In this document: piece after piece, positions 44,653-55,898 of the stretch
Numbering within the stretch: position 1 is the first letter of the stretch
Layout of the letters: every line of letters begins with the position of its first letter
Source of the DNA: Candidatus Parcubacteria bacterium
GTDB taxonomy: Bacteria; Patescibacteriota; Minisyncoccia; Phycocordibacterales; UBA2100
Direction of reading: 5' to 3'
NCBI GenBank assembly: GCA_003599295.1
Contig: QZJK01000009.1
Span: forward strand, 1-55,898
Length of the DNA: 55,898 nucleotides
Translations under genes and position numbers: made by a program
The notes under the pieces: model-generated
The model's database searches: none
Told to the model about the DNA's origin: nothing
Seen by the model: only the letters and a program-made list of their open reading frames with translations

Positions 44653-46872
44653 ATGACACTTGAGAAGGCTTTGCGGTGGGTAGCGCTCGGGGGCGTATTT
44701 GCTCTTCCGTTCGTAGTATTCATCGTCGCGGAGTCGCTCTATTTTCCCTTTATCACTGGGAAGAACTTCGCATTCCGCATCATCGTCGAGGTGATGACGG
44801 GTGCGTGGCTCGCACTTGCGGTCATGAACCCGGCATACCGCCCGCGTCGCTCGTGGCTCTTGGCGGCGTTCGCGCTCTTTCTTGTCATCATTGCCGCCGC
44901 GGACCTATTCGGGGTTAATCCCTTCAAAAGTTTCTGGAGCAACTATGAGCGCATGGACGGGTGGGTGACCTTAGCGCACCTCTTTGCATATTTCGTCGTC
45001 GCTTCGACAATGCTTTCGGAGAAACTCTGGCGCGCGCTCCTTCAAACATCACTCGCCGTTTCTGCAGTGGTCGGTCTCTATGCACTACTTCAACTCTTCG
45101 GCATTGCGAGCTTGAATCCGGGATTTTCCTCCACCGCGCGTCTCGACGCAACATTCGGGAACCCCATCTACTTGGCGGCCTACATGCTCTTCCACGTCTT
45201 TTTTGCGGCGTTCCTTCTTGCGGGTGTATGGCGGCGGGAGAGGTCTCGGTCACTTTCGCCGCTCGTCTATTTTTACATAGGGGTGCTCATTCTGGATACT
45301 CTCATACTTTTCTTAACAAGTACCCGCGGCGCGATACTAGGCCTTCTCGGCGGCGCGATACTAGCGGCGTTGCTTTACGTCTTTTCGTTCGATGCGTCTC
45401 TAAAGACACGTCGGATCGTCGTGGGCGCAGTCATTCTTGTGATGCTTTTTGGGGTCATCGTACGATTCTCGCGCGAGACGACGTGGGTGGAGAGCATATC
45501 GTTCCTTCAGCGTCTTGCCAGTATTTCCCTTGAAGACTCAACTACCAAGGCGCGCATTATGAACTGGGGCATGGCTTGGGAGGGTGTCAAAGAACGGCCG
45601 ATTTTGGGATGGGGGCAGGAGAACTACGCCATAGTGTTCAGTAAATACTACAACCCGAATATGTACGGTCAGGAGCAGTGGTTCGACCGCGTGCACAACG
45701 TCATATTCGACTGGCTCGTAGCGGGAGGCTTGCTTGGACTTGCGGCATACCTTTCCATCTTCGCCATTGCGCTGCGATACCTCTGGAGAAAGGGAGAAGA
45801 AACAGCGGCCGCGTTCACGCCCGCCGAGAAGTGCCTGTTAACGGGTCTTCTTGTCGCGTATTTCTTTCATAATCTCTTCGTGTTCGATAACGTCATGAGT
45901 TATATAACGTTTACTACCGTATTAGCACTTATTGCTTCCCGCTTCGGCACAGCGACGAATGCGAAGAGGCTCTTCGCCAACGTGGTGGTACCCGCTCGAA
46001 CCTTTCCAGGCGTTGCATTTGCCGCTGTAGTTCTTGTCTGGGGAGTAGCCTGGTTCGTGAACGCGAACGCACTTTCGGCAAACCGCGCGCTTCTCCAGAG
46101 CCTCGCCCCGCATCCGGAAGGTATCTTGAAGAACCTCGAATCTTTCGAGAAAGCGATTCTCTATAACTCGTACGGCACACAAGAAGCACGGGAGCAGCTT
46201 CTTCAGGCGGCGGTCCAGGTCTCTCAGATAGAACAAGTAGACATCGAAACAAAGCGGAAGTTCCTTGAGACCGCGGCACAGCAAATGACGTTGCAAAGCA
46301 AAGTTTCGCCGCTTGACCCGCGTTTTCCTTTTTTCTTGAGTTTTCTCCTCAACTCATACGGCGTGTATGACGCAGCCGCTACTGTTCTTGAACAAGCGCA
46401 CGCTCTCTCTCCGGCCAAACAAACCATTCTTTTCGAAATGGCGGCAAATGCCTTCGCGCGAGGCGACAACGACCGAGGCCTCGAGTTATACAAGCAGGCA
46501 TTCGAACTTGCTCCAGCATATGTGGAAGCACGCATCCTCTATGCATCCGCCGCGATACAAATGGGGCGGGACGCTCTCGCCGATGAACTCATCCTCCCGA
46601 TTATCGCTACCGATCGTATATTGGATGCCCGCATCACCTCTTCCTATATTTCCCGCAATCGCTACGACAAACTAATCTCGATACTCGAAGCCCATATCGA
46701 AGCTCGTCCGGAACACACGCAGGCGCGCTTCACGCTTGCAGCCGCATATCATGCGGCGGGTAACTCTGCAAAAGCGATAGCAGTGCTCCAGGAAGCAATC
46801 CGGGTGGACCCCTCGATAGAGGTGGAAGCGAACGCACTTATTCAGGACATCAGGAACGGAACTTCGCAGTAG
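44653..46872 (+). CDS. O-antigen ligase/Wzy-like polytopic membrane protein with C-terminal TPR repeats
   Basis: Multiple TM helices, the Wzy_C-like loop LTSTRGAILGLLGG, and about 250 C-terminal residues with TPR-like A/L/Y periodicity (..AFELAPAYVEARILYASAA..). Confidence 0.75.
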   Translation: MTLEKALRWVALGGVFALPFVVFIVAESLYFPFITGKNFAFRIIVEVMTGAWLALAVMNPAYRPRRSWLLAAFALFLVIIAAADLFGVNPFKSFWSNYERMDGWVTLAHLFAYFVVASTMLSEKLWRALLQTSLAVSAVVGLYALLQLFGIASLNPGFSSTARLDATFGNPIYLAAYMLFHVFFAAFLLAGVWRRERSRSLSPLVYFYIGVLILDTLILFLTSTRGAILGLLGGAILAALLYVFSFDASLKTRRIVVGAVILVMLFGVIVRFSRETTWVESISFLQRLASISLEDSTTKARIMNWGMAWEGVKERPILGWGQENYAIVFSKYYNPNMYGQEQWFDRVHNVIFDWLVAGGLLGLAAYLSIFAIALRYLWRKGEETAAAFTPAEKCLLTGLLVAYFFHNLFVFDNVMSYITFTTVLALIASRFGTATNAKRLFANVVVPARTFPGVAFAAVVLVWGVAWFVNANALSANRALLQSLAPHPEGILKNLESFEKAILYNSYGTQEAREQLLQAAVQVSQIEQVDIETKRKFLETAAQQMTLQSKVSPLDPRFPFFLSFLLNSYGVYDAAATVLEQAHALSPAKQTILFEMAANAFARGDNDRGLELYKQAFELAPAYVEARILYASAAIQMGRDALADELILPIIATDRILDARITSSYISRNRYDKLISILEAHIEARPEHTQARFTLAAAYHAAGNSAKAIAVLQEAIRVDPSIEVEANALIQDIRNGTSQ

Positions 46873-47091
46873 GTTTCTTGCCCGGTTAGCATAATTTGGC
46901 ATAGGTTCTGCCGCCTTATCTTGAGAGTGCTCATGAATAACCAGGAGTGTGACATTTTTTGAGCTGGCGCTCGTTGAATCATCGCCAAGGCAATGCCAAA
47001 TTTTTCTACCGGGCTTGCCCGTTTTCCGGTGGGTGATAGAATTGTGTTGTGAGTGCCACTAATGTGTGGCTCTCCAGAGAAAGTCGCGTAG

Positions 47092-47120
47092 ATCCCGCCC
47101 ACGGCGGGGTTTACGTTTTG
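47092..47120 (+). terminator. possible intrinsic terminator
   Basis: GC stem ATCCCGCC/GGCGGGGT with a 3-nt loop, followed by TTTACGTTTTG. It lies 220 nt downstream of the ligase-like gene. Confidence 0.35.
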
Positions 47121-47200
47121 TAGAGGGGTGCTATCGTTTGTTAAGAGGCGCATAAAGCGGAGGGCGGCGGCACTCACATAGACTTTCTACTTTGGAGCTC

Positions 47201-47445
47201 GCACCCGTCCTCCGCTTTCTGCGTCTTTTCGTTTACGAAAAAGGACGGGTGCACAAGCACAAACCCCCACGGCGGAAGGCAGTGAGTGAGCATAGCGAGC
47301 GAACGTTGGAAACCGAGGGGTTTCCAAGATGGGGTGTGGGGGTTTGTGCCCGTGGTGGAAAGATGGAAAACCGAGAGGTTTTCCAGACGGGGGTCGGGGG
47401 CTTGTGGAAACACCTGCTCCTCCGCTTTGTGCATCTTTTTGGTTT
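47201..47445. repeat. composite non-coding repeat/hairpin array
   Basis: - 10-bp stem at 47201-47210/47243-47252.
- 13-bp stem CACAAACCCCCAC/GTGGGGGTTTGTG at 47258-47270/47336-47348.
- Tandem hairpin units at 47308-47348 and 47365-47406, with a 57-nt period.
- Direct repeats TCCTCCGCTTT(C/G)TGC.TCTTTT at 47208-47234 and 47418-47445. Confidence 0.75.
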
Positions 47446-47635
47446 TGATAATTCCGAAAAGGTTATTTTGAAAATTGAAAATTGTAAGATTCGAAAATTA
47501 AAAAAGTTATCCACACATGCAAAGTGAAAATGTATTATTCACACGCATCAATGCAATAATGAAATAGAAAACGCATCTTCGCGAACTAAACGCAAGTGCG
47601 GGTCGAAGTTAACACTCTCAATACACAACAAACGT

Positions 47636-47680
47636 ATGGCAAAGAAAAAGAAGAAGGGTGGCAAGAAGAAGCGCCGCTAA
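47636..47680 (+). CDS. candidate 14-codon poly-basic mini-ORF (MAKKKKKGGKKKRR)
   Basis: ATG..TAA downstream of a strongly AT-rich tract and immediately followed by two hairpins. There is no clear Shine-Dalgarno sequence. Coding status is unproven. Confidence 0.3.
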   Translation: MAKKKKKGGKKKRR

Positions 47681-47707
47681 GGTAAGTCTCTCGAGTACTC
47701 GAGACAC

Positions 47708-47740
47708 AGAACGCCGCACATCGTGCGGCGTTCTCTTCGT
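47708..47740 (+). terminator. 12-bp hairpin (AGAACGCCGCAC/GTGCGGCGTTCT) with weak U-tract; terminator or attenuator
   Basis: Perfect 12-bp stem with a 3-nt loop, followed by CTTCGT. It is preceded by a palindrome TCTCGAGTACTCGAGA at 47689-47704. Confidence 0.5.
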
Positions 47741-47748
47741 GGAATGAA

Positions 47749-47894
47749 GCCGTGTTTGCCCCCACACCTTTCCTCCCCTTGTTTTGCGAGGAGATACTCA
47801 ATTAAGCGGTTAAATATCGAGTTCACATTCCATATTGGAAAACGTACGGCCGATGAACGGCAAAACAGGAGCGAGAGGAGGAAAGGTGTGGGGG
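47749..47894 (+). promoter_or_regulatory. 18-bp long-range stem in secA leader pairing CCCCCACACCTTTCCTCC with GGAGGAAAGGTGTGGGGG
   Basis: 47749-47766 is the perfect reverse complement of 47877-47894. The 3-prime arm contains the only GGAGGA motif upstream of the secA start at 47916. Confidence 0.55.
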
Positions 47895-47915
47895 TTTGTG
47901 ATAGGATGCGCCACG

Positions 47916-50402
47916 ATGGCATTTTGGAAGCGATTGCTGGGGGACGAGAATACAGCGGCACTTCGAGCGGCGGAGCCTATCGTCGCGCAGGTAAATGCGT
48001 TCGAGCTCGGCATGCAAGCGTTGTCCGATGCCGACCTCAAGGCAAAAACTGGAGAATTCCGCTCGCGGCTCCGGGCCGGAGAATCCCTGGAGGATCTTGC
48101 TCCGGAAGCATTCGCGGCGGTGCGCGAGGCGTCGCGCCGAACCCTCGGCCAGCGGCATTTTGACGTCCAGCTTATCGGAGGAAAGATACTCCACAACGGG
48201 GACATCGCTGAAATGAGGACGGGCGAAGGCAAGACGCTTGTCGCGACGCTTCCCGCATATCTGAACGCGCTCGAAGGAAAAGGTGTGCATGTTGTCACGG
48301 TGAACGACTACCTTTCACGGCGCGACGCTGTCTGGATGGGACAAGTCTATTATGCGCTCGGCATGTCAGTCGGCGTGTTGAATCATGAGGCCTCGTATAT
48401 ATATGATCCGACCGCGGCAACGGACGATAAAGAACGGGACGAAATGGGGGCGTTCAAAGTCATGCATGATTTTCTTCGTCCCTCGACGCGGCGCGAAAGC
48501 TACGCTGCCGACATCACGTACGGCACGAATAACGAATTCGGATTTGACTACCTCCGCGACAATCTCGAGTACGAACCGCAAGATTTGCGCCAGCGCGGGT
48601 ATCAATACGCGATAGTGGACGAGATCGACTCTATATTAATAGACGAGGCGCGCACACCGCTCATCATCTCTGCCCCCGTTTCAGACGCCGAGAATCTCTA
48701 TGAACGGTTTACCTCGATCGCGCGCGGTTTGGAAAAGGAGGAAGATTACACCGTCGACGAAAAACATAAACAGCTCCAGTTAACCGATAGCGGCATCGAG
48801 AAAGCCGAGAAAGCCTTGGGCATTGAGAACATATACACCGATGCCGGCATCAAGTATGTGCACCATCTGGAGACGGCCGTTCGCGCAAAAGCCCTTTTTC
48901 ACAAAGATAAAGAGTATGTAGTGCGGGATGGAAAGGTCGTTATCGTCGACGAATTCACAGGGCGCCTTCAGCCCGGGAGACGCTGGAGCGACGGACTTCA
49001 CCAGGCCATTGAGGCGAAAGAAGGGGTTTCCGTCCAGCAAGAATCGAGAACGTTCGCTTCCATTACCTTCCAGAACTACTTCAGGCTCTATAAGAAGCTC
49101 TCCGGCATGACGGGTACCGCGCTCACGAGTTCGGAGGAGTTTTTCAAGGTCTACGGGCTCAATACTGTAGCAGTGCCCACCAACAAGCCCTCGCATCGAG
49201 CAGACCTCAACGATCTTATCTTCCAGACGGAAGAAGGGAAGTTGCGCGCAATGGCGCGCACCGTGAAGCAGCTCAACGAGAAGGGTCAGCCGGTCCTCGT
49301 CGGTACGGTATCGGTCGAGAAGAACGAGATACTCTCGGCGCACTTCAAGCAAGAGGGCATTCCTCATGAAATACTGAATGCGAAAAATCACGAGCGGGAG
49401 GGGGAAATAATCGCGCAAGCAGGGCGGAAAGGCGCGGTCACTATTGCGACAAACATGGCCGGCCGCGGTGTCGACATCAAGCTTGGCGGGAATCCGGGGA
49501 GCGATGCGGCATACGAAGAAGTGAAAGAGCTGGGAGGTCTCTTTGTACTCGGCACCGAGCGCCATGAGGCGCGACGAATCGATAATCAGCTGCGCGGACG
49601 CGCTGGTCGCCAAGGGGATCCGGGAGAGACTCAATTTTTCGTTTCTCTGGAAGATTCGCTGATGCGAATATTCGCCTCCGATACCATCAAGCGGGTCATG
49701 GGAACGTTCAAGATCCCGGAGGATGAACCCATCTACAACTCGATGATAACGCGCTCACTTGAGAAGGCGCAGACGCGGATAGAGGAGTTGAACTTTGATG
49801 CCCGGAAACACGTGCTCTCCTACGACGACGTCCTTAATGTGCAGCGCCAAAGCATCTATGGCCGCCGACATGCACTATTGACCGGGGGGTCCGAAGCCGT
49901 CGATGCAGAACTCGCTCAAATAGTAGAGCAGGATCCGTCGCTTGCCAGTGCCGTCTCAGCAAAGAAAGAAGAGCTTGGGGAAGCTTTCTATCCGGCCCTT
50001 CGCCGCTTTTTGCTTCGCAGCATCGACTTCCTCTGGGTGGAGCACCTTGAACAGATGGAGTATCTCCGCTCTTCAGTGAGCCTTCGTGCGTACGGGCAGC
50101 GCGACCCTTTGGTTGAATACAAGAAAGAAGGACTACGACTCTTCAAGGATATGGAAACATCATATGTTGTGCGTATTTCACAAGCGCTTCCGAGCCTGGC
50201 GTCGGCGAAAGAAGCTCCCGCGGGAGAAACCCGCACCATACAACGGGCCGTGCACTCTATTACGGGGGCGACGAAAGCCCCCATCCGGAAAGCATATGAG
50301 CGCAACGAGCGCGTCACCATCACGAACGGAAAGGAGCAAAAAGAAATGAAATATAAGAAAGCGGAGCCGCTTCTCGCGGCAGGGTGGAGGATAGTCGGAT
50401 AG
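47916..50402 (+). CDS. secA: preprotein translocase ATPase SecA
   Basis: MAFWKRLLGD..., FDVQLIGG, MRTGEGKTLVATLPAYLNAL, VTVNDYLSRRD, DEIDSILIDEARTPLIIS and TNMAGRGVDIKLGG motifs. The ORF opens at 47835, but alignment logic favours 47916. Confidence 0.95.
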   Translation: MAFWKRLLGDENTAALRAAEPIVAQVNAFELGMQALSDADLKAKTGEFRSRLRAGESLEDLAPEAFAAVREASRRTLGQRHFDVQLIGGKILHNGDIAEMRTGEGKTLVATLPAYLNALEGKGVHVVTVNDYLSRRDAVWMGQVYYALGMSVGVLNHEASYIYDPTAATDDKERDEMGAFKVMHDFLRPSTRRESYAADITYGTNNEFGFDYLRDNLEYEPQDLRQRGYQYAIVDEIDSILIDEARTPLIISAPVSDAENLYERFTSIARGLEKEEDYTVDEKHKQLQLTDSGIEKAEKALGIENIYTDAGIKYVHHLETAVRAKALFHKDKEYVVRDGKVVIVDEFTGRLQPGRRWSDGLHQAIEAKEGVSVQQESRTFASITFQNYFRLYKKLSGMTGTALTSSEEFFKVYGLNTVAVPTNKPSHRADLNDLIFQTEEGKLRAMARTVKQLNEKGQPVLVGTVSVEKNEILSAHFKQEGIPHEILNAKNHEREGEIIAQAGRKGAVTIATNMAGRGVDIKLGGNPGSDAAYEEVKELGGLFVLGTERHEARRIDNQLRGRAGRQGDPGETQFFVSLEDSLMRIFASDTIKRVMGTFKIPEDEPIYNSMITRSLEKAQTRIEELNFDARKHVLSYDDVLNVQRQSIYGRRHALLTGGSEAVDAELAQIVEQDPSLASAVSAKKEELGEAFYPALRRFLLRSIDFLWVEHLEQMEYLRSSVSLRAYGQRDPLVEYKKEGLRLFKDMETSYVVRISQALPSLASAKEAPAGETRTIQRAVHSITGATKAPIRKAYERNERVTITNGKEQKEMKYKKAEPLLAAGWRIVG

Positions 50403-50426: not shown

Positions 50427-50850
50427 AAATTCTAAACAAATCCCAATGAATCAAAACCCAAATAACAAAACATACAACCTAGAGGAGCGGGCTTTACAAT
50501 TCGCGCAGAGAGTCAACAATTATGTGAGGGATCTGCCAAAGGACCTACCAAATATTGAGAATGGCAAACAGCTTGTGCGTTCTGCCGGTTCAGTAGGCGC
50601 GAACTATATAGAGGCTAATGAATCGTTAAGTAAAAAGGATTTTGTGATGCGCACGAAGATTTCCAAGAAAGAGGCGAAGGAGAGTCGATACTGGTTAATT
50701 TTGACCCAGCCTAGGGCAGCAAGCCAAAGAGAGAAAGAAATTTTAGTGCAGGAAGCGACCGAGCTGATGAAGATACTCGGTTCAATACTAGAGAAGTCGA
50801 AGTAGTGTTTGTTAATCTGGAGTTTAGAATTTGTCGTTTGTTTAGAATTT
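50427..50850. repeat. imperfect inverted repeats bracketing the four-helix-bundle gene
   Basis: AAATTCTAAACAAA (50427-50440) pairs with TTTGTTTAGAATTT (50837-50850). There is an extra GTTTAGAATTT copy at 50822-50832, and TAGGGTTTAG/TAGGATTTAG-type matches lie further out. Confidence 0.65.
50446..50805 (+). CDS. four-helix-bundle protein (TIGR02436 / 23S rRNA intervening-sequence protein family)
   Basis: 119 aa. LEERALQFAQRV...LP....E...GKQLVRSAGSVGANYIEANES.SKKDF..K..I..KEAKESRYWL is the family signature. AT-rich. Confidence 0.85.
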   Translation: MNQNPNNKTYNLEERALQFAQRVNNYVRDLPKDLPNIENGKQLVRSAGSVGANYIEANESLSKKDFVMRTKISKKEAKESRYWLILTQPRAASQREKEILVQEATELMKILGSILEKSK

Positions 50851-53607: not shown

Positions 53608-53647
53608 CGCAGTTGTTATCCACACGCAAACGCAGTTGTTATCCACT
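53608..53647 (+). promoter_or_regulatory. two 16-nt direct repeats CGCAGTTGTTATCCAC, each containing a DnaA-box-like TTATCCAC(A/T)
   Basis: Repeats at 53608-53623 and 53631-53646, 23 nt apart start to start. TTATCCACA lies at 53616-53624 and TTATCCACT at 53639-53647. They sit about 65-100 nt upstream of the ATG at 53712. Confidence 0.55.
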
Positions 53648-53711: not shown

Positions 53712-55898
53712 ATGAATGACGAAGTTTTCTTTGATGGCACGAAGTACATTTCTGCAAACGACGCAGCGACTTCTTCGGACCTGACGAGAGATTACATTGC
53801 TCGTCTTTGCAGAGAAGGGAAAATAAAAGGTCGTCAGATAGGGAAGAACTGGTACGTAAATCAAGAATCACTCTCCTCGTTTCTTCTCAAGCAAAGTTAT
53901 TTAAAAGCCACACGCAGAAAGGAGGTTACTCAAGAGCGCCTTAACGAATACTACAGAGTTCTTCAAGAACCGATACGAACGGCTTCTTCGCCTCTGGGAC
54001 CGACTCCTGGACATTCGTCTAAAGAATCAAGCGCCACCCCCTTACCTCTCATTCAGAAGAAATTCGATGTTCATAGCGCTCTTGCACGAGCGGTCATCAA
54101 GCGCAGTTCGATCGTTCCCGGAGGCATGCTACACGCAGCTTCGAGTGTCGGAGCGCACCTTACGCCGCATGCGCTCTCTCCCGTTGCGAATTTTTTGCAC
54201 AAAGTAATCGCACTTACTGCGGCGCTTCTTCTCACCATCGGAACGTATGTGCTAGTAAATCCTGACGCCATCACGATGGCGGGTGAGATAGCTAATCGCG
54301 CGAAGCTCGCATTGCAAAACGGAATTAAATCCGTTGAAGACGGTAGTTTCGAACGGATATTTGAAAATGCGGGAGTGCAACTAGCCGCAGCGGTTGAGAA
54401 CCCATCGTTCACTCTCGGAACTCTCGTTCAAAAAGCGGGAGATCTTGCGCGCACGTTTAACCGGACTGTTGATTCTTATGCGTACAAAGTGGCGTTCCCT
54501 GATTGGCTCGTATATGAAAATCTTTTTGCGGAACGCCCCTATGGCGGCACGGTAGTTGCAAGAATAACTCCAAGGACTTTGACGGAAACTACGCCGACGG
54601 CAACGCCGCCCTCGCGCGGAGGAACCGTGTATGCGGGAGGTCCCACGACAGTGATCAACCAACCAGTCGTTGAGCGCATAGTTGAGCGTGTTGTCGCAGT
54701 CGGCGGAATCAGCGAGGACTCTCTGAACGCGCGTCTCGTTGCCCTTCACAGCGATCTCTTGAATCGCATCTACTCCCTCTCTTCCGCTCAGACGACCGTC
54801 ATCAACAACACATACGAAACACTCGGCGCCGTCGCACGAAGCGACAACTTCGACGACATCAACATCGACGATTCGGACATTACGAACTCAAGGATCTCCG
54901 GCTCTTCCGTAGATGCCACCACGCTCACCACAAGCGGTGATGCCTCGGTAGGCGGTAATCTCACGGTCACAGGCAGCCTCACTGTCTCGGGTGCGCAGAC
55001 GCTCTCCGGCGCGATAACGATTCCCTATCTCAATGCGACCTCGACGACGGCAAGCACGTTCCTCAACGCCTCTACGACACTCCTCTCCGTCACCAATCGC
55101 GCCTACTTTGGCGGCACCTCCACAACAACGATCGACAGCATCGGCTCCATCACGCTTCCTTCGGCCGCACTTCTCACCGCTCCCTACGCCTCCTCGACCG
55201 CGCTCACGGTCTCTGGCACGGGCTACTTCGGCACGGCAAGTACGACCAACCTCACCGTCTCCTCGCTCACTGCAACGAGGATTCCCTTCGCGACCACAAG
55301 CGGCGCATTCACCGATTCTGCGAATCTCACGTTTGCATCGGACGTCCTCTCATCGCCGTCTTTCCTCGCCACTTCCTCCTCAACCCTCCAGAACTTCACT
55401 TTCCAGAATGCGACGGGCACCGCGGCGACAACCACGAGTTTTTTCGCAACTACCGCATCCTCAACCAACCTCTTCACCTCTAACTTCTCGTTGGGTTCCC
55501 TGAACGGACCACTCCACGCCAATGCCGGTGTCGTCTCTGCTACCACCTCAATCGGCGTTCTCTACGGAGGCACTGGCCTCACAATTGCACCAAGTTACGG
55601 ACAGCTTCTTCTTGGTCAGTCAAACGGCACGTATGCGCTCACCGCCACAAGTTCTCTCGGCCTTATCTCCGAGCTCCAGCGTGACTGGCAGGTCACCAAT
55701 GGATACCTCACCCCCACCACCACCATCGGCATCCTCGTCAACGCATCCTCAACGATCGGCAACGGCGCGCAGGCAGGCGGACTCACCATTTCAGGAGGGG
55801 CGACGACCTCGGGGAACTTCCTCGTGCAAGGCAACACGACACTCGCAAGCGCGACCTCCACCAACTTCGCCATCACGTCGATCGCTTCCGGCAACCTC
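53712..55898 (+). CDS. giant surface protein, N-terminal part (HTH module, TM helix, Ser/Thr/Ala-rich repetitive extracellular region); 3-prime end outside window
   Basis: My own translation shows 729 codons open from ATG 53712 to the window edge. The ORF is absent from the supplied track because it has no stop. N-terminal HTH VFFDGTKYISANDAATSSDLTRDYIARLCREGKIKGRQIGKNWYVNQESL. TM helix VIALTAALLLTIGTYVLV. After that come recurring A-S/T-S-T-N-L/F motifs. Confidence 0.8.
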   Translation, partial: MNDEVFFDGTKYISANDAATSSDLTRDYIARLCREGKIKGRQIGKNWYVNQESLSSFLLKQSYLKATRRKEVTQERLNEYYRVLQEPIRTASSPLGPTPGHSSKESSATPLPLIQKKFDVHSALARAVIKRSSIVPGGMLHAASSVGAHLTPHALSPVANFLHKVIALTAALLLTIGTYVLVNPDAITMAGEIANRAKLALQNGIKSVEDGSFERIFENAGVQLAAAVENPSFTLGTLVQKAGDLARTFNRTVDSYAYKVAFPDWLVYENLFAERPYGGTVVARITPRTLTETTPTATPPSRGGTVYAGGPTTVINQPVVERIVERVVAVGGISEDSLNARLVALHSDLLNRIYSLSSAQTTVINNTYETLGAVARSDNFDDINIDDSDITNSRISGSSVDATTLTTSGDASVGGNLTVTGSLTVSGAQTLSGAITIPYLNATSTTASTFLNASTTLLSVTNRAYFGGTSTTTIDSIGSITLPSAALLTAPYASSTALTVSGTGYFGTASTTNLTVSSLTATRIPFATTSGAFTDSANLTFASDVLSSPSFLATSSSTLQNFTFQNATGTAATTTSFFATTASSTNLFTSNFSLGSLNGPLHANAGVVSATTSIGVLYGGTGLTIAPSYGQLLLGQSNGTYALTATSSLGLISELQRDWQVTNGYLTPTTTIGILVNASSTIGNGAQAGGLTISGGATTSGNFLVQGNTTLASATSTNFAITSIASGNL

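Follow-up and report, generated by a model that had tools for sequence, protein, structure and literature searches.

A mosaic spacer upstream of secA in a Candidatus Parcubacteria genome and its two putatively interacting small RNA genes

The spacer that precedes secA in contig QZJK01000009.1 of a Candidatus Parcubacteria genome (assembly GCA_003599295.1; the whole contig of 55,898 nt, contig C5 of the genome, is referred to below as the window) is likely to be a mosaic of independent units, not a single element, with a core of two adjacent, separately transcribed and interacting small RNA (sRNA) genes, which we call A and B. The members of this mosaic are an insertion resembling a miniature inverted-repeat transposable element (MITE), sRNA A, sRNA B, a gene-end cassette, a poly-lysine micro-gene and a long hairpin in the secA leader (Table 1). 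The cassette, the MITE-like insertion and the repeat pieces of the secA leader are younger than the A/B core. The original prediction, made from the letters of the window, had described the kilobase at 46873-47915 as gene-free. No long open reading frame (ORF) with a family match is found there; the region does, however, hold two sRNA genes and a conserved 14-codon ORF that had been overlooked.

Conservation of the spacer is modular. In a DNA search, relatives match the region in 27 of 41 genomes, and only as three blocks, 47049-47119, 47157-47222 and 47502-47679. The order in the 11 mapped loci of the genus is A, B, micro-gene, secA, and the distance from B to the micro-gene block is ~70-80 nt in relatives, compared with ~280 nt in the window. 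The comparison of syntenic spacers that the original prediction had proposed thus revealed conservation of separate modules and not of the region as a whole, while the proposed Rfam scan returned no known family.

RNA B is ~90-100 nt long, and its hairpin has a covarying outer stem, invariant inner strands and an apical loop that varies in both sequence and length. An alignment of 40 B sequences (A1) contains 21 invariant columns, clustered in the inner strands (GGCGGCGGCACUCA / UGGAGCUCGCACCCG). RNAalifold assigns 28 base pairs to this alignment, 17 of which show compensatory changes; 95.0% of the cells are paired, compared with 76.0% in shuffles. The covariation score is 0.523 as against 0.171 for shuffled alignments, none of 500 reaching the observed value, and it does not exceed 0.167 when the pairing partners are slid by 1-3 columns. 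The predicted fold of B has an energy of -49.8 kcal/mol on the + strand (z -6.7) and -41.7 on the - strand. The + strand is further favoured by many G-U pairs, by weaker reverse-strand scores, by a conserved extended -10 element ~10 nt upstream, and by a U-tract past the stem, which is present in roughly 9 of the 13 loci of the genus, the window included.

These substitution patterns bear on the view that the spacer is a degraded protein gene or junk, in which the conserved blocks are merely promoters and terminators of the neighbouring genes. Several ORFs of 86-111 aa do overlap the region, and promoter and terminator motifs are plentiful. However, the ORFs lack Pfam matches and span insertions that are missing from relatives, as is the case for both 111-aa ORFs (46842-47177 on the - strand and 47192-47527 on the + strand). 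Moreover, substitutions in B fit a paired RNA and not codons, and the core of B is invariant over many families, far beyond the needs of a terminator. We consider this view exceedingly unlikely.

B is widespread in the order. Of 201 genomes of the order, 42 yield one copy each in a BLAST search with a 93-nt B query, and model R1, which matches the window at 47143-47229 with 84.2 bits, finds B in 110 of 151, almost always once per genome (29 first-look candidates were scored in each genome). The same model matches 3 of 151 genomes in a phylum-wide sample, namely the genome studied here and two others, one sharing its order and one its class. Within the genus, B sequences are 90-98% identical, compared with ~70% for secA DNA. 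In one relative (locus L004:1040-2112, genome G016), B alone is inverted with respect to A, the micro-gene and secA.

RNA A is ~75 nt long. It carries an invariant GUGAG.G (seed GUGAGUG) at its 5' end in an alignment of 27 sequences (A2), followed by a small hairpin with covarying arms (GCCAC/GUGGC, GCUAC/GUAGU, GCCGAU/AUCGGU, GACCGAC/GUCGGCC), a single-stranded linker of the GAAAGUCU type (AAAGUC-type), and an intrinsic terminator; its fold energy is -37.8 kcal/mol (z -6.0). In relatives belonging to many families, -35 and -10 elements (TTGACT/TTGACA ... TATACT-like) lie 5-7 nt ahead of the YGUGAG start. Covariance model R2 recovers full-length A in 41 of 50 B-centred sources (27 seeds and 14 new sequences), at most 1.5 kb from B. 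The two genes have the same orientation in 38 of these 41 loci and are opposed in three (L004, L028 and L029); they are therefore separate transcription units. A has the features expected of an sRNA: a promoter of its own and an intrinsic terminator bound a short non-coding unit, which contains a conserved single-stranded seed and a linker covarying with the loop of B.

Two hairpins listed in the original prediction acquire a meaning in this light. The terminator-like GC hairpin is real (47094-47119, with a U-tail) and forms the 3' end of sRNA A, although conserved structured RNAs had been given only passing weight. Analogously, the 10-bp stem exists, as a perfect 11-nt stem at 47201-47211/47242-47252, but its arm at 47201-47210 went unrecognised as the 3' strand of sRNA B.

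The complementarity between A and B is split over two sites. B GGCACUCACA (47169-47178) is perfectly complementary over 10 nt to A 47048-47057, with which it forms an inverted repeat, and B GACUUUCU (47181-47188) complements A 47078-47085; GGAG of B (47194-47197) may additionally pair with CUCC directly 5' of seed 2 of A. The B loop and the A linker change in a compensating manner across families, as in the pairs GAUAUUUACUUU/AAAGUAAAUAUC, GACAUUUUACUUU/AAAGUAAAAUGUC and CAACAUUUCGUUU/AAACGAAAUGUUG, and further in AGGCAUUUG/CAAAUGCCU and UAAAUCUU/AAGAUUUA. An uninterrupted Watson-Crick run of at least 7 nt is present in 36 of 40 cognate pairs, and a seed run of at least 6 nt in 37 of 40. For 34 non-redundant loops, the mean duplex energy is -11.1 kcal/mol with the cognate A and -6.9 kcal/mol with non-cognate ones (p<=1e-4; 0 of 10,000 permutations). 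Given this complementarity and covariation, binding and its consequence are predicted as follows: the linker of A would pair with the variable loop of B, and the 5' seed of A would pair with the adjoining invariant CACUCACA, opening the 5-bp inner helix of B.

It should be noted that several observations weigh against this interpretation of the A/B pair. The cognate A ranks first for only 13 of the 34 loops, many of which share AGACUUU, and the cognate test uses related sequences, whose relatedness inflates tests of this kind. Pairing at seed 1 is supported by invariance alone, and the B variants CACUCAUA and CACUCACG are uncompensated in A. The segments of A occur in permuted order relative to a simple antisense RNA; therefore, the predicted complex must be crossed, two-site and pseudoknot-like. 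Searches of the genome for further targets of A or partners of B, by exact 11-mers, by seeds near start codons and by enrichment of CACTCA-type motifs, gave results at chance level. B was not detected in 41 of the 151 genomes of the order, although these absences are soft in view of the number of candidates scored. No sequencing run recorded as RNA contains the stretch, the transcript ends, abundance and interaction of A and B are all deduced from sequence, and the sole contig from a run marked 'RNA?' is DNA-like, since it extends over a promoter as well as the terminal part of a coding gene. Finally, an independent function of B would be argued from conservation only.

In most families of the order, B is a leader hairpin that abuts the start codon of murB. 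Among 47 distinct loci, 18 have a murB-like ORF that begins 30-54 nt past the B core marker, and 23 have one no farther than 250 nt away; the tested ORFs behind B are all MurB by Pfam (16 of 16), while locus L043 has a transketolase gene instead. In such murB-linked families, A would probably control the B leader. The window adds a new fact, namely that in its genus B is uncoupled from murB and yet conserved. No murB follows B in any of the 13 loci of the genus, the murB of the genome itself lies on contig C7 after uvrB, with no B-like sequence there, and the A-B pairs of the genus (n=12) keep a mean duplex energy of -10.3 kcal/mol. Because B remains conserved and complementary to A without murB, we infer that it has a function of its own beyond that of a murB leader. 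In this genus, B would act by itself, as a decoy or a protein-binding RNA gated by A.

Alternatively, B might be only a cis-acting 5' leader of murB, riboswitch-like or protein-binding and occluding the start region, with A as its regulator and the pair in this genus as a functionless relic. The position of B directly ahead of murB in the loci counted above agrees with this proposal, as do the invariant internal-loop strands between covarying helices, which look like those of single-hairpin aptamers; conserved pocket nucleotides between covarying helices, as in riboswitches, are indeed present in B. In the genus, however, B lacks a downstream murB throughout and murB lacks B, while B is still far more conserved than secA DNA and retains its complementarity to A. 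Also at odds with a leader-only role are the U-tract past the B stem, the inversion of B in L004 and the transketolase gene behind B in L043. In our opinion, the leader-only explanation is rather unlikely, and the retention of B in a genus that has lost its murB context amounts to a natural experiment that argues for a function of B itself.

Comparison with known RNA systems helps to define what is specific to the pair. CopA-CopT of R1 and RNAI-RNAII of ColE1 and pT181 are plasmid pairs of an antisense RNA and a leader hairpin, in which the antisense RNAs are fully complementary, cis-encoded counter-transcripts. As in these systems, a small RNA ending in a terminator (A) is predicted to meet a single-stranded apical loop (that of B), with pairing extending into the stem, and over most of the order the B hairpin serves as leader to the gene that follows it. 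In contrast to them, the gene for A lies 20-360 nt or more from that for B, mostly on the same strand, and A is not a full counter-transcript of B: its complementarity is split into 6-10 and 7-13 nt in permuted order. Furthermore, A and B are chromosomal and conserved order-wide, and the hairpin leads a regulated gene in other families but leads none in the window or its genus.

A second comparison is with trans-encoded sRNAs and their sponges, exemplified by ChiX with the chb spacer, GcvB with SroC, and RybB/RyhB with 3'ETS-leuZ. Like the former, A combines a promoter of its own with an invariant seed at the extreme 5' end and an intrinsic terminator, and, like the latter, B could titrate A through a seed-matching site. 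In contrast to known sRNAs, A yielded no mRNA target in the searches of the genome, and B is conserved more than A, the opposite of what is expected of a mere sponge. A third comparison is with the single-hairpin riboswitch aptamers with conserved internal loops, such as THF-II/folE, NMT1/xanthine and nhaA-I. B resembles them in having covarying helices around invariant internal-loop strands and in lying mostly upstream of one gene class (murB), with the basal stem near the start codon; it differs in that its variable apical loop co-evolves with a second RNA, that it persists without a downstream gene in the genus, and that it has no match in Rfam.

Patescibacteria, or the candidate phyla radiation (CPR), have very few protein regulators, and no small regulatory RNA that has been characterised experimentally is known to us from this group; the titles and abstract openings that made up most of the literature searched mention none either. 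Absent from Rfam 15 and from that literature, the A/B pair represents a new family, but one of a familiar type, in which an sRNA base-pairs with a structured RNA. A co-evolving RNA pair in about three quarters of the sampled genomes of the order constitutes a concrete and testable regulatory circuit, tied to loci of cell-wall synthesis (murB) and secretion (secA).

At gathering thresholds, Rfam 15 has no match in the entire window. The region itself gives only chance microRNA- or terminator-like matches at E<=10, and the corresponding loci of 20 relatives give, at E<=1, only sub-threshold matches to rnk_pseudo, P9, L20_leader and IS128; for A, the rnk_pseudo matches reach 21-35 bits, below the gathering score of 55. 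Neither a tRNA nor a transfer-messenger RNA (tmRNA) is found in the window by ARAGORN. The genes for RNase P RNA (C1:7469-7827), tmRNA (C1:63904-64291) and 5S rRNA (C17:12828-12933) lie elsewhere in the genome. The failure of the original prediction to recognise tmRNA, RNase P, signal recognition particle (SRP) or 6S RNA by eye agrees with the model searches, none of which matches the region. 6S RNA (RF00013) has no match in the genome. It is ~150-200 nt long with a central bubble, and B was rejected as a candidate, being a hairpin of ~90-100 nt with an apical loop and no central bubble.

That B might be a divergent SRP RNA was suggested by the lack of any match of SRP RNA models in the genome (RF00169 and RF01854) or its relatives (RF00169 in 0 of 31 at E<=0.1). 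The Ffh M domain (PF02978) and the SRP GTPase domain (PF00448) are likewise absent from the genome, three motif scans of its six-frame translation reveal no SRP GTPase, and relatives (G001-G040) together with the 151-genome phylum sample yield only P-loop-level matches of at most 26 bits. In the parts of Nelson and Stegen (2015; PMC4508563) consulted, ffh and ffs are reported as undetected in Parcubacteria. With Ffh and FtsY missing too, and the absence published, the SRP candidate was rejected; the lack of SRP is already known for Parcubacteria. Publications on SRP in CPR, on murB riboswitches, on structured RNAs of Parcubacteria, and on MITEs or repetitive extragenic palindromic (REP) elements of CPR contain, mostly in their titles and abstract openings, no account of A, B or the cassettes, and no description of them occurs in the consulted part of PMC11665869.

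Table 1 Features of the spacer upstream of secA, with positions in the window
Feature	Positions	Strand	Description and basis
MITE-like insertion	46877-47024		21-nt terminal inverted repeats 46882-46902/46993-47013 (81%); 11-nt direct repeats CTTGCCCGGTT / CTTGCCCGTTT (46877-46887, 47014-47024)
Promoter of sRNA A	47015-47042	+	TTGCCC, 16 nt, TAGAAT with TG; consensus scan
sRNA A	47048-47125	+	5' seed UGUGAGUGCC; hairpin GCCAC/GUGGC; single-stranded AGAGAAAGUC (seed 2); terminator CCCGCC-CAC-GGCGGGG and U-tail
Extended -10 of sRNA B, TGCTATCGT	47129-47137	+	Aligns with TGnTATACT/TATAAT-like elements upstream in 40 loci; start site predicted
sRNA B	47143-47241	+	Long hairpin 47143-47229; invariant inner strands GGCGGCGGCACUCACA / UGGAGCUCGCACCCG; variable 15-22-nt apical loop; U-tail
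A-binding region of B (predicted)	47169-47197	+	Sequence complementarity, duplex energies, loop-linker covariation
Gene-end repeat cassette	47242-47417	+	Repeat analysis, relatives, metagenome contigs
Diverged direct duplicate (X') of B 3' half and tail	47404-47451	+	47208-47241 versus 47418-47451, 79%; start ~47404 by eye
Micro-gene promoter region	47452-47560	+	AT-rich tract with 3 x GAAAATT; invariant AGTTATCCACA 47505-47515; extended -10 TGCAATAAT 47552-47560
Micro-ORF, MAKKKKKGGKKKRR*	47636-47680	+	14 codons, Lys/Arg-rich; translation
Micro-gene terminator	47686-47745	+	Palindrome GTCTCTCGAGT/ACTCGAGACAC, then 12-bp GC hairpin 47708-47734 and T-rich tail; inverted repeats
Long hairpin in secA leader	47749-47900	+	Inverted repeat; arms reuse repeat pieces GGAGGAAAGG and TGTGGGGG
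Ribosome-binding site and start of secA	47902-47918	+	TAGGAT 47902-47907, ATG 47916; leader comparison, Pfam SecA domains

The cassette behind B opens with an inverted copy of the B 3' strand, AGGACGGGTGC (47242-47252). Its cores are nested or in tandem (47252-47406): unit 1 (47258-47348) is bounded by CACAAACCCCCAC/GTGGGGGTTTGTG, and unit 2 (47349-47406) matches C8:22629-22663 (97%) and C2:14879-14917 (90%). Metagenome DNA contigs of runs X1, X2 and X3 join 47258 to 47349, skipping 90 nt, and one X2 contig joins 47231 to 47443, skipping 211 nt; therefore, both unit 1 and the whole insert are presence/absence polymorphisms. Hairpins of the type GGAAA(A)CC-N4-GGTTT(T)CC that carry GGAGGAAGG and GGGGTCGGGG boxes are present in the genome at 11 loci, of which nine lie within 110 nt of a tRNA gene, one lies behind B, and one (C10:6853) has no called RNA gene nearby. 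The layout at tRNA genes is tRNA, inverted 3'-end copy, cassette core, direct 3'-end copy, with exact direct repeats of 16 nt (Asp), 16 nt (Lys), 11 nt (Gln) and 9 nt (Val). In local alignments, high scores for both copies (direct >=17, inverted >=19) are obtained at no fewer than 9 of the 40 tRNA genes; the direct copies are 9-20 nt long, and some of these genes have a second core family.

An independent insertion behind B, with a different core, is present in relative G008 (L010:1560-1740), where the inverted copy spans 1590-1614 (25 nt) and the direct copy 1690-1732 (~42 nt of the B 3' half). The targets of the cassettes thus include the B gene besides tRNA genes. The cassette in the window would have inserted behind B and duplicated its 3' half, as at tRNA genes. 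Integrative elements that target the 3' ends of tRNA or tmRNA genes leave a duplicated gene end, and, in a similar way, the 3' part of the RNA gene recurs as a direct duplicate beside the insert behind B, the presence of which is polymorphic. Unlike such elements, the cassettes are ~100-180 nt long and lack an integrase (the 176-nt cassette of the window is non-coding, without an integrase or any other gene for mobilisation), they carry an inverted copy of the 3' end of the target too, the duplicated length is 9-40 nt, and the target here is a small regulatory RNA gene.

A broader proposal can be advanced only tentatively, since we regard it as possible but doubtful. B would be an RNA in its own right, acting as a protein-binding or decoy molecule in SRP-less Parcubacteria and gated by antisense A, and the pair would be the first conserved RNA-RNA regulatory circuit of CPR; the B gene would be handled like that of a tRNA, with cassettes inserted behind it on separate occasions in two species and its 3' end copied both ways, pointing to an undescribed insertion mechanism that recognises or uses the 3' ends of stable RNAs.

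As separate observations on the cassettes, several copies open directly past the tRNA with a common (AGAG)TGAACGAAGTGA-like motif. The sites at tRNA genes are L018 (G000:C1:46556-49647), L015-L017 (C2 ~13.2-16.5 kb), C1:27.4-28.8, C3:22.5, C6:46.0, C8:22.3-22.7 and 30.0, and C13:16.9 kb.

All stems, repeats and motifs listed in the original prediction are present, with coordinates that are exact or off by 1-2 nt. Thus, the 13-nt stem 47258-47270/47336-47348 is perfect and, at 89%, can be lengthened to 19 nt; the tandem units (47310-47348 and 47368-47406) are 79% alike; the direct repeat 47208-47241 / 47418-47451 is 34 nt long at 79%; the AT-rich tract holds its three GAAAATT copies; and the third copy of the G5/C5 motif is at 47886-47900, its complement lying in a 21-nt, 95% inverted repeat (47759-47779/47874-47894). 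The suggestion of a decayed repeat element was apt, in that a decayed or mobile repeat describes both 47242-47417 and the arms of the secA-leader hairpin, which belong to a dispersed repeat (11 loci) with recent and polymorphic copies. In the genome-wide search for GTGTGGGGGTTTGTG, the exact 15-mer is confined to this region of the 716-kb genome. The G-runs, for which the original prediction had raised G-quadruplexes as a possibility, comprise four tracts of G4-5 at 47329-47396 with a central loop of ~44 nt, and are paired with C-runs in the minimum-energy fold.

The original prediction had suggested, next to a decayed repeat, a family of structured RNA modules, a reading that can be framed as one large structured RNA or homologous modules using the G5/C5 motif for long-range helices across the kilobase. 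The long-range stems are real and very stable, and the G5/C5 motif is used three times inside 650 nt. Folds in the region surpass those of dinucleotide shuffles (z -5.6 to -7.2; 0 of 200 shuffles equal them), with -49.4 kcal/mol (z -5.6) for the cassette unit 47252-47354. Nevertheless, the G5/C5 stems sit in segments that are missing from relatives and polymorphic in metagenome DNA, and units of this type occur at 10 further loci, mostly adjoining tRNA genes. Promoters and terminators split the region into units that are independent and vary in order and orientation among relatives, the secA-leader hairpin is not conserved, and Rfam has no match. We regard a single large RNA or a set of joined modules as highly improbable. 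The most striking helices, i.e., the G-run/C-run stems, are young insertions and not conserved RNAs; caution is therefore advisable when CPR spacers are mined for structured RNAs.

The MITE-like insertion has terminal inverted repeats, a flanking direct repeat and an empty site in a relative, where 47014 follows directly on the end of the upstream ORF in a contig of run X20. It is present as a single copy in its own genome, and is thus not multicopy as MITEs are. Weak copies are found in two relatives of the genus, G021 (70% over query positions 2-142) and G024 (88% over 9-42).

The micro-gene appears to be a conserved stand-alone gene with its own promoter, structured leader and terminator. 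As judged from the -10 element, its leader would be ~70 nt long; it contains a conserved GGGTCGA. ORFs of the MAKKKK...RR type, with 12-30 Lys/Arg/Ala-rich codons, occur in the loci of 20 relatives and in a 25-locus alignment, and an equivalent hairpin with a U-run follows the micro-ORF in relatives. Seven longer homologues of the micro-ORF have no match in Pfam or NCBIfam. Tiny basic ribosomal proteins are known, among them bS22, bL37, Thx and eL41; the micro-ORF peptide is like them in its 12-30 residues, its Lys/Arg/Ala composition and its stand-alone gene, but it matches no family model, and the likeness is one of sequence alone.

Upstream of the micro-gene, AGTTATCCACA corresponds to what we take to be the DnaA-box consensus. 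In the 25-locus alignment, drawn from across the order, the box reads TTATCCACA in 21 loci and TTATCCCCA in three, and the -10 column is conserved. A replication origin or a DnaA-controlled DNA element could be imagined here, given that TTATCCACA at 47507 and a near-perfect TTATTCACA at 47535 lie beside the AT-rich tract with its GAAAATT copies and that the box is so widely conserved. However, boxes with at most one mismatch are not enriched in the window (11 compared with 7.7 expected; 16 of 100 shuffles reach 11), GC skew does not switch at 47 kb, and dnaA lies elsewhere (C3:57774). Furthermore, the spacing between the box and the micro-gene -10 downstream of it is constant at ~40 nt, as for the site of a transcription factor. 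An origin or a DnaA-controlled element is accordingly very unlikely, and oriC was rejected for having two boxes only, no enrichment, no skew switch, and dnaA on C3.

The spacer ends at the secA start codon, ATG 47916, from which the SecA N-terminus MxFWKRL.GDEN aligns; on the other side lies a gene (44653-46872) for a 739-aa protein with Wzy_C (O-antigen-ligase-like) and TPR domains (Pfam). The genome comprises 716,511 bp in 18 contigs and is 97.9% complete, and the best public matches of SecA, at 78-80% identity, are labelled, for instance, Candidatus Kaiserbacteria, with farther ones of the Parcubacteria/Paceibacteria type; the bacterium is ultra-small and its genus of the Kaiserbacteria type. 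TAGGAT is found 8-9 nt ahead of the ATG in 7 of 9 leaders (not in L002 and L003), and most leaders of the genus share nothing else. The long hairpin in the secA leader is lineage-specific, as the leaders of 8 relatives differ; the fold of 47752-47898 has an energy of -63.9 kcal/mol (z -7.15).

Long non-homologous hairpins recur before secA within the genus. In G008, an unrelated and very long inverted repeat precedes secA (L010:2020-2170), and its 230-nt leader folds with -115 kcal/mol.

A few further observations concern other parts of the window. A second DnaA-box-like pair is located at 53616-53647 (TTATCCACA at 53616 and TTATCCACT at 53639), just upstream of an HTH_17 ORF that starts at 53712, and the cumulative GC skew ceases to rise near 53 kb. 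The segment 15000-19000 has a low GC content (0.43-0.47, compared with ~0.53 elsewhere) and a high GC skew. Between secA and gatB, at 50446-50805, lies a 119-aa gene of the '23S rRNA intervening-sequence protein' family (PF05635), remote from rRNA.

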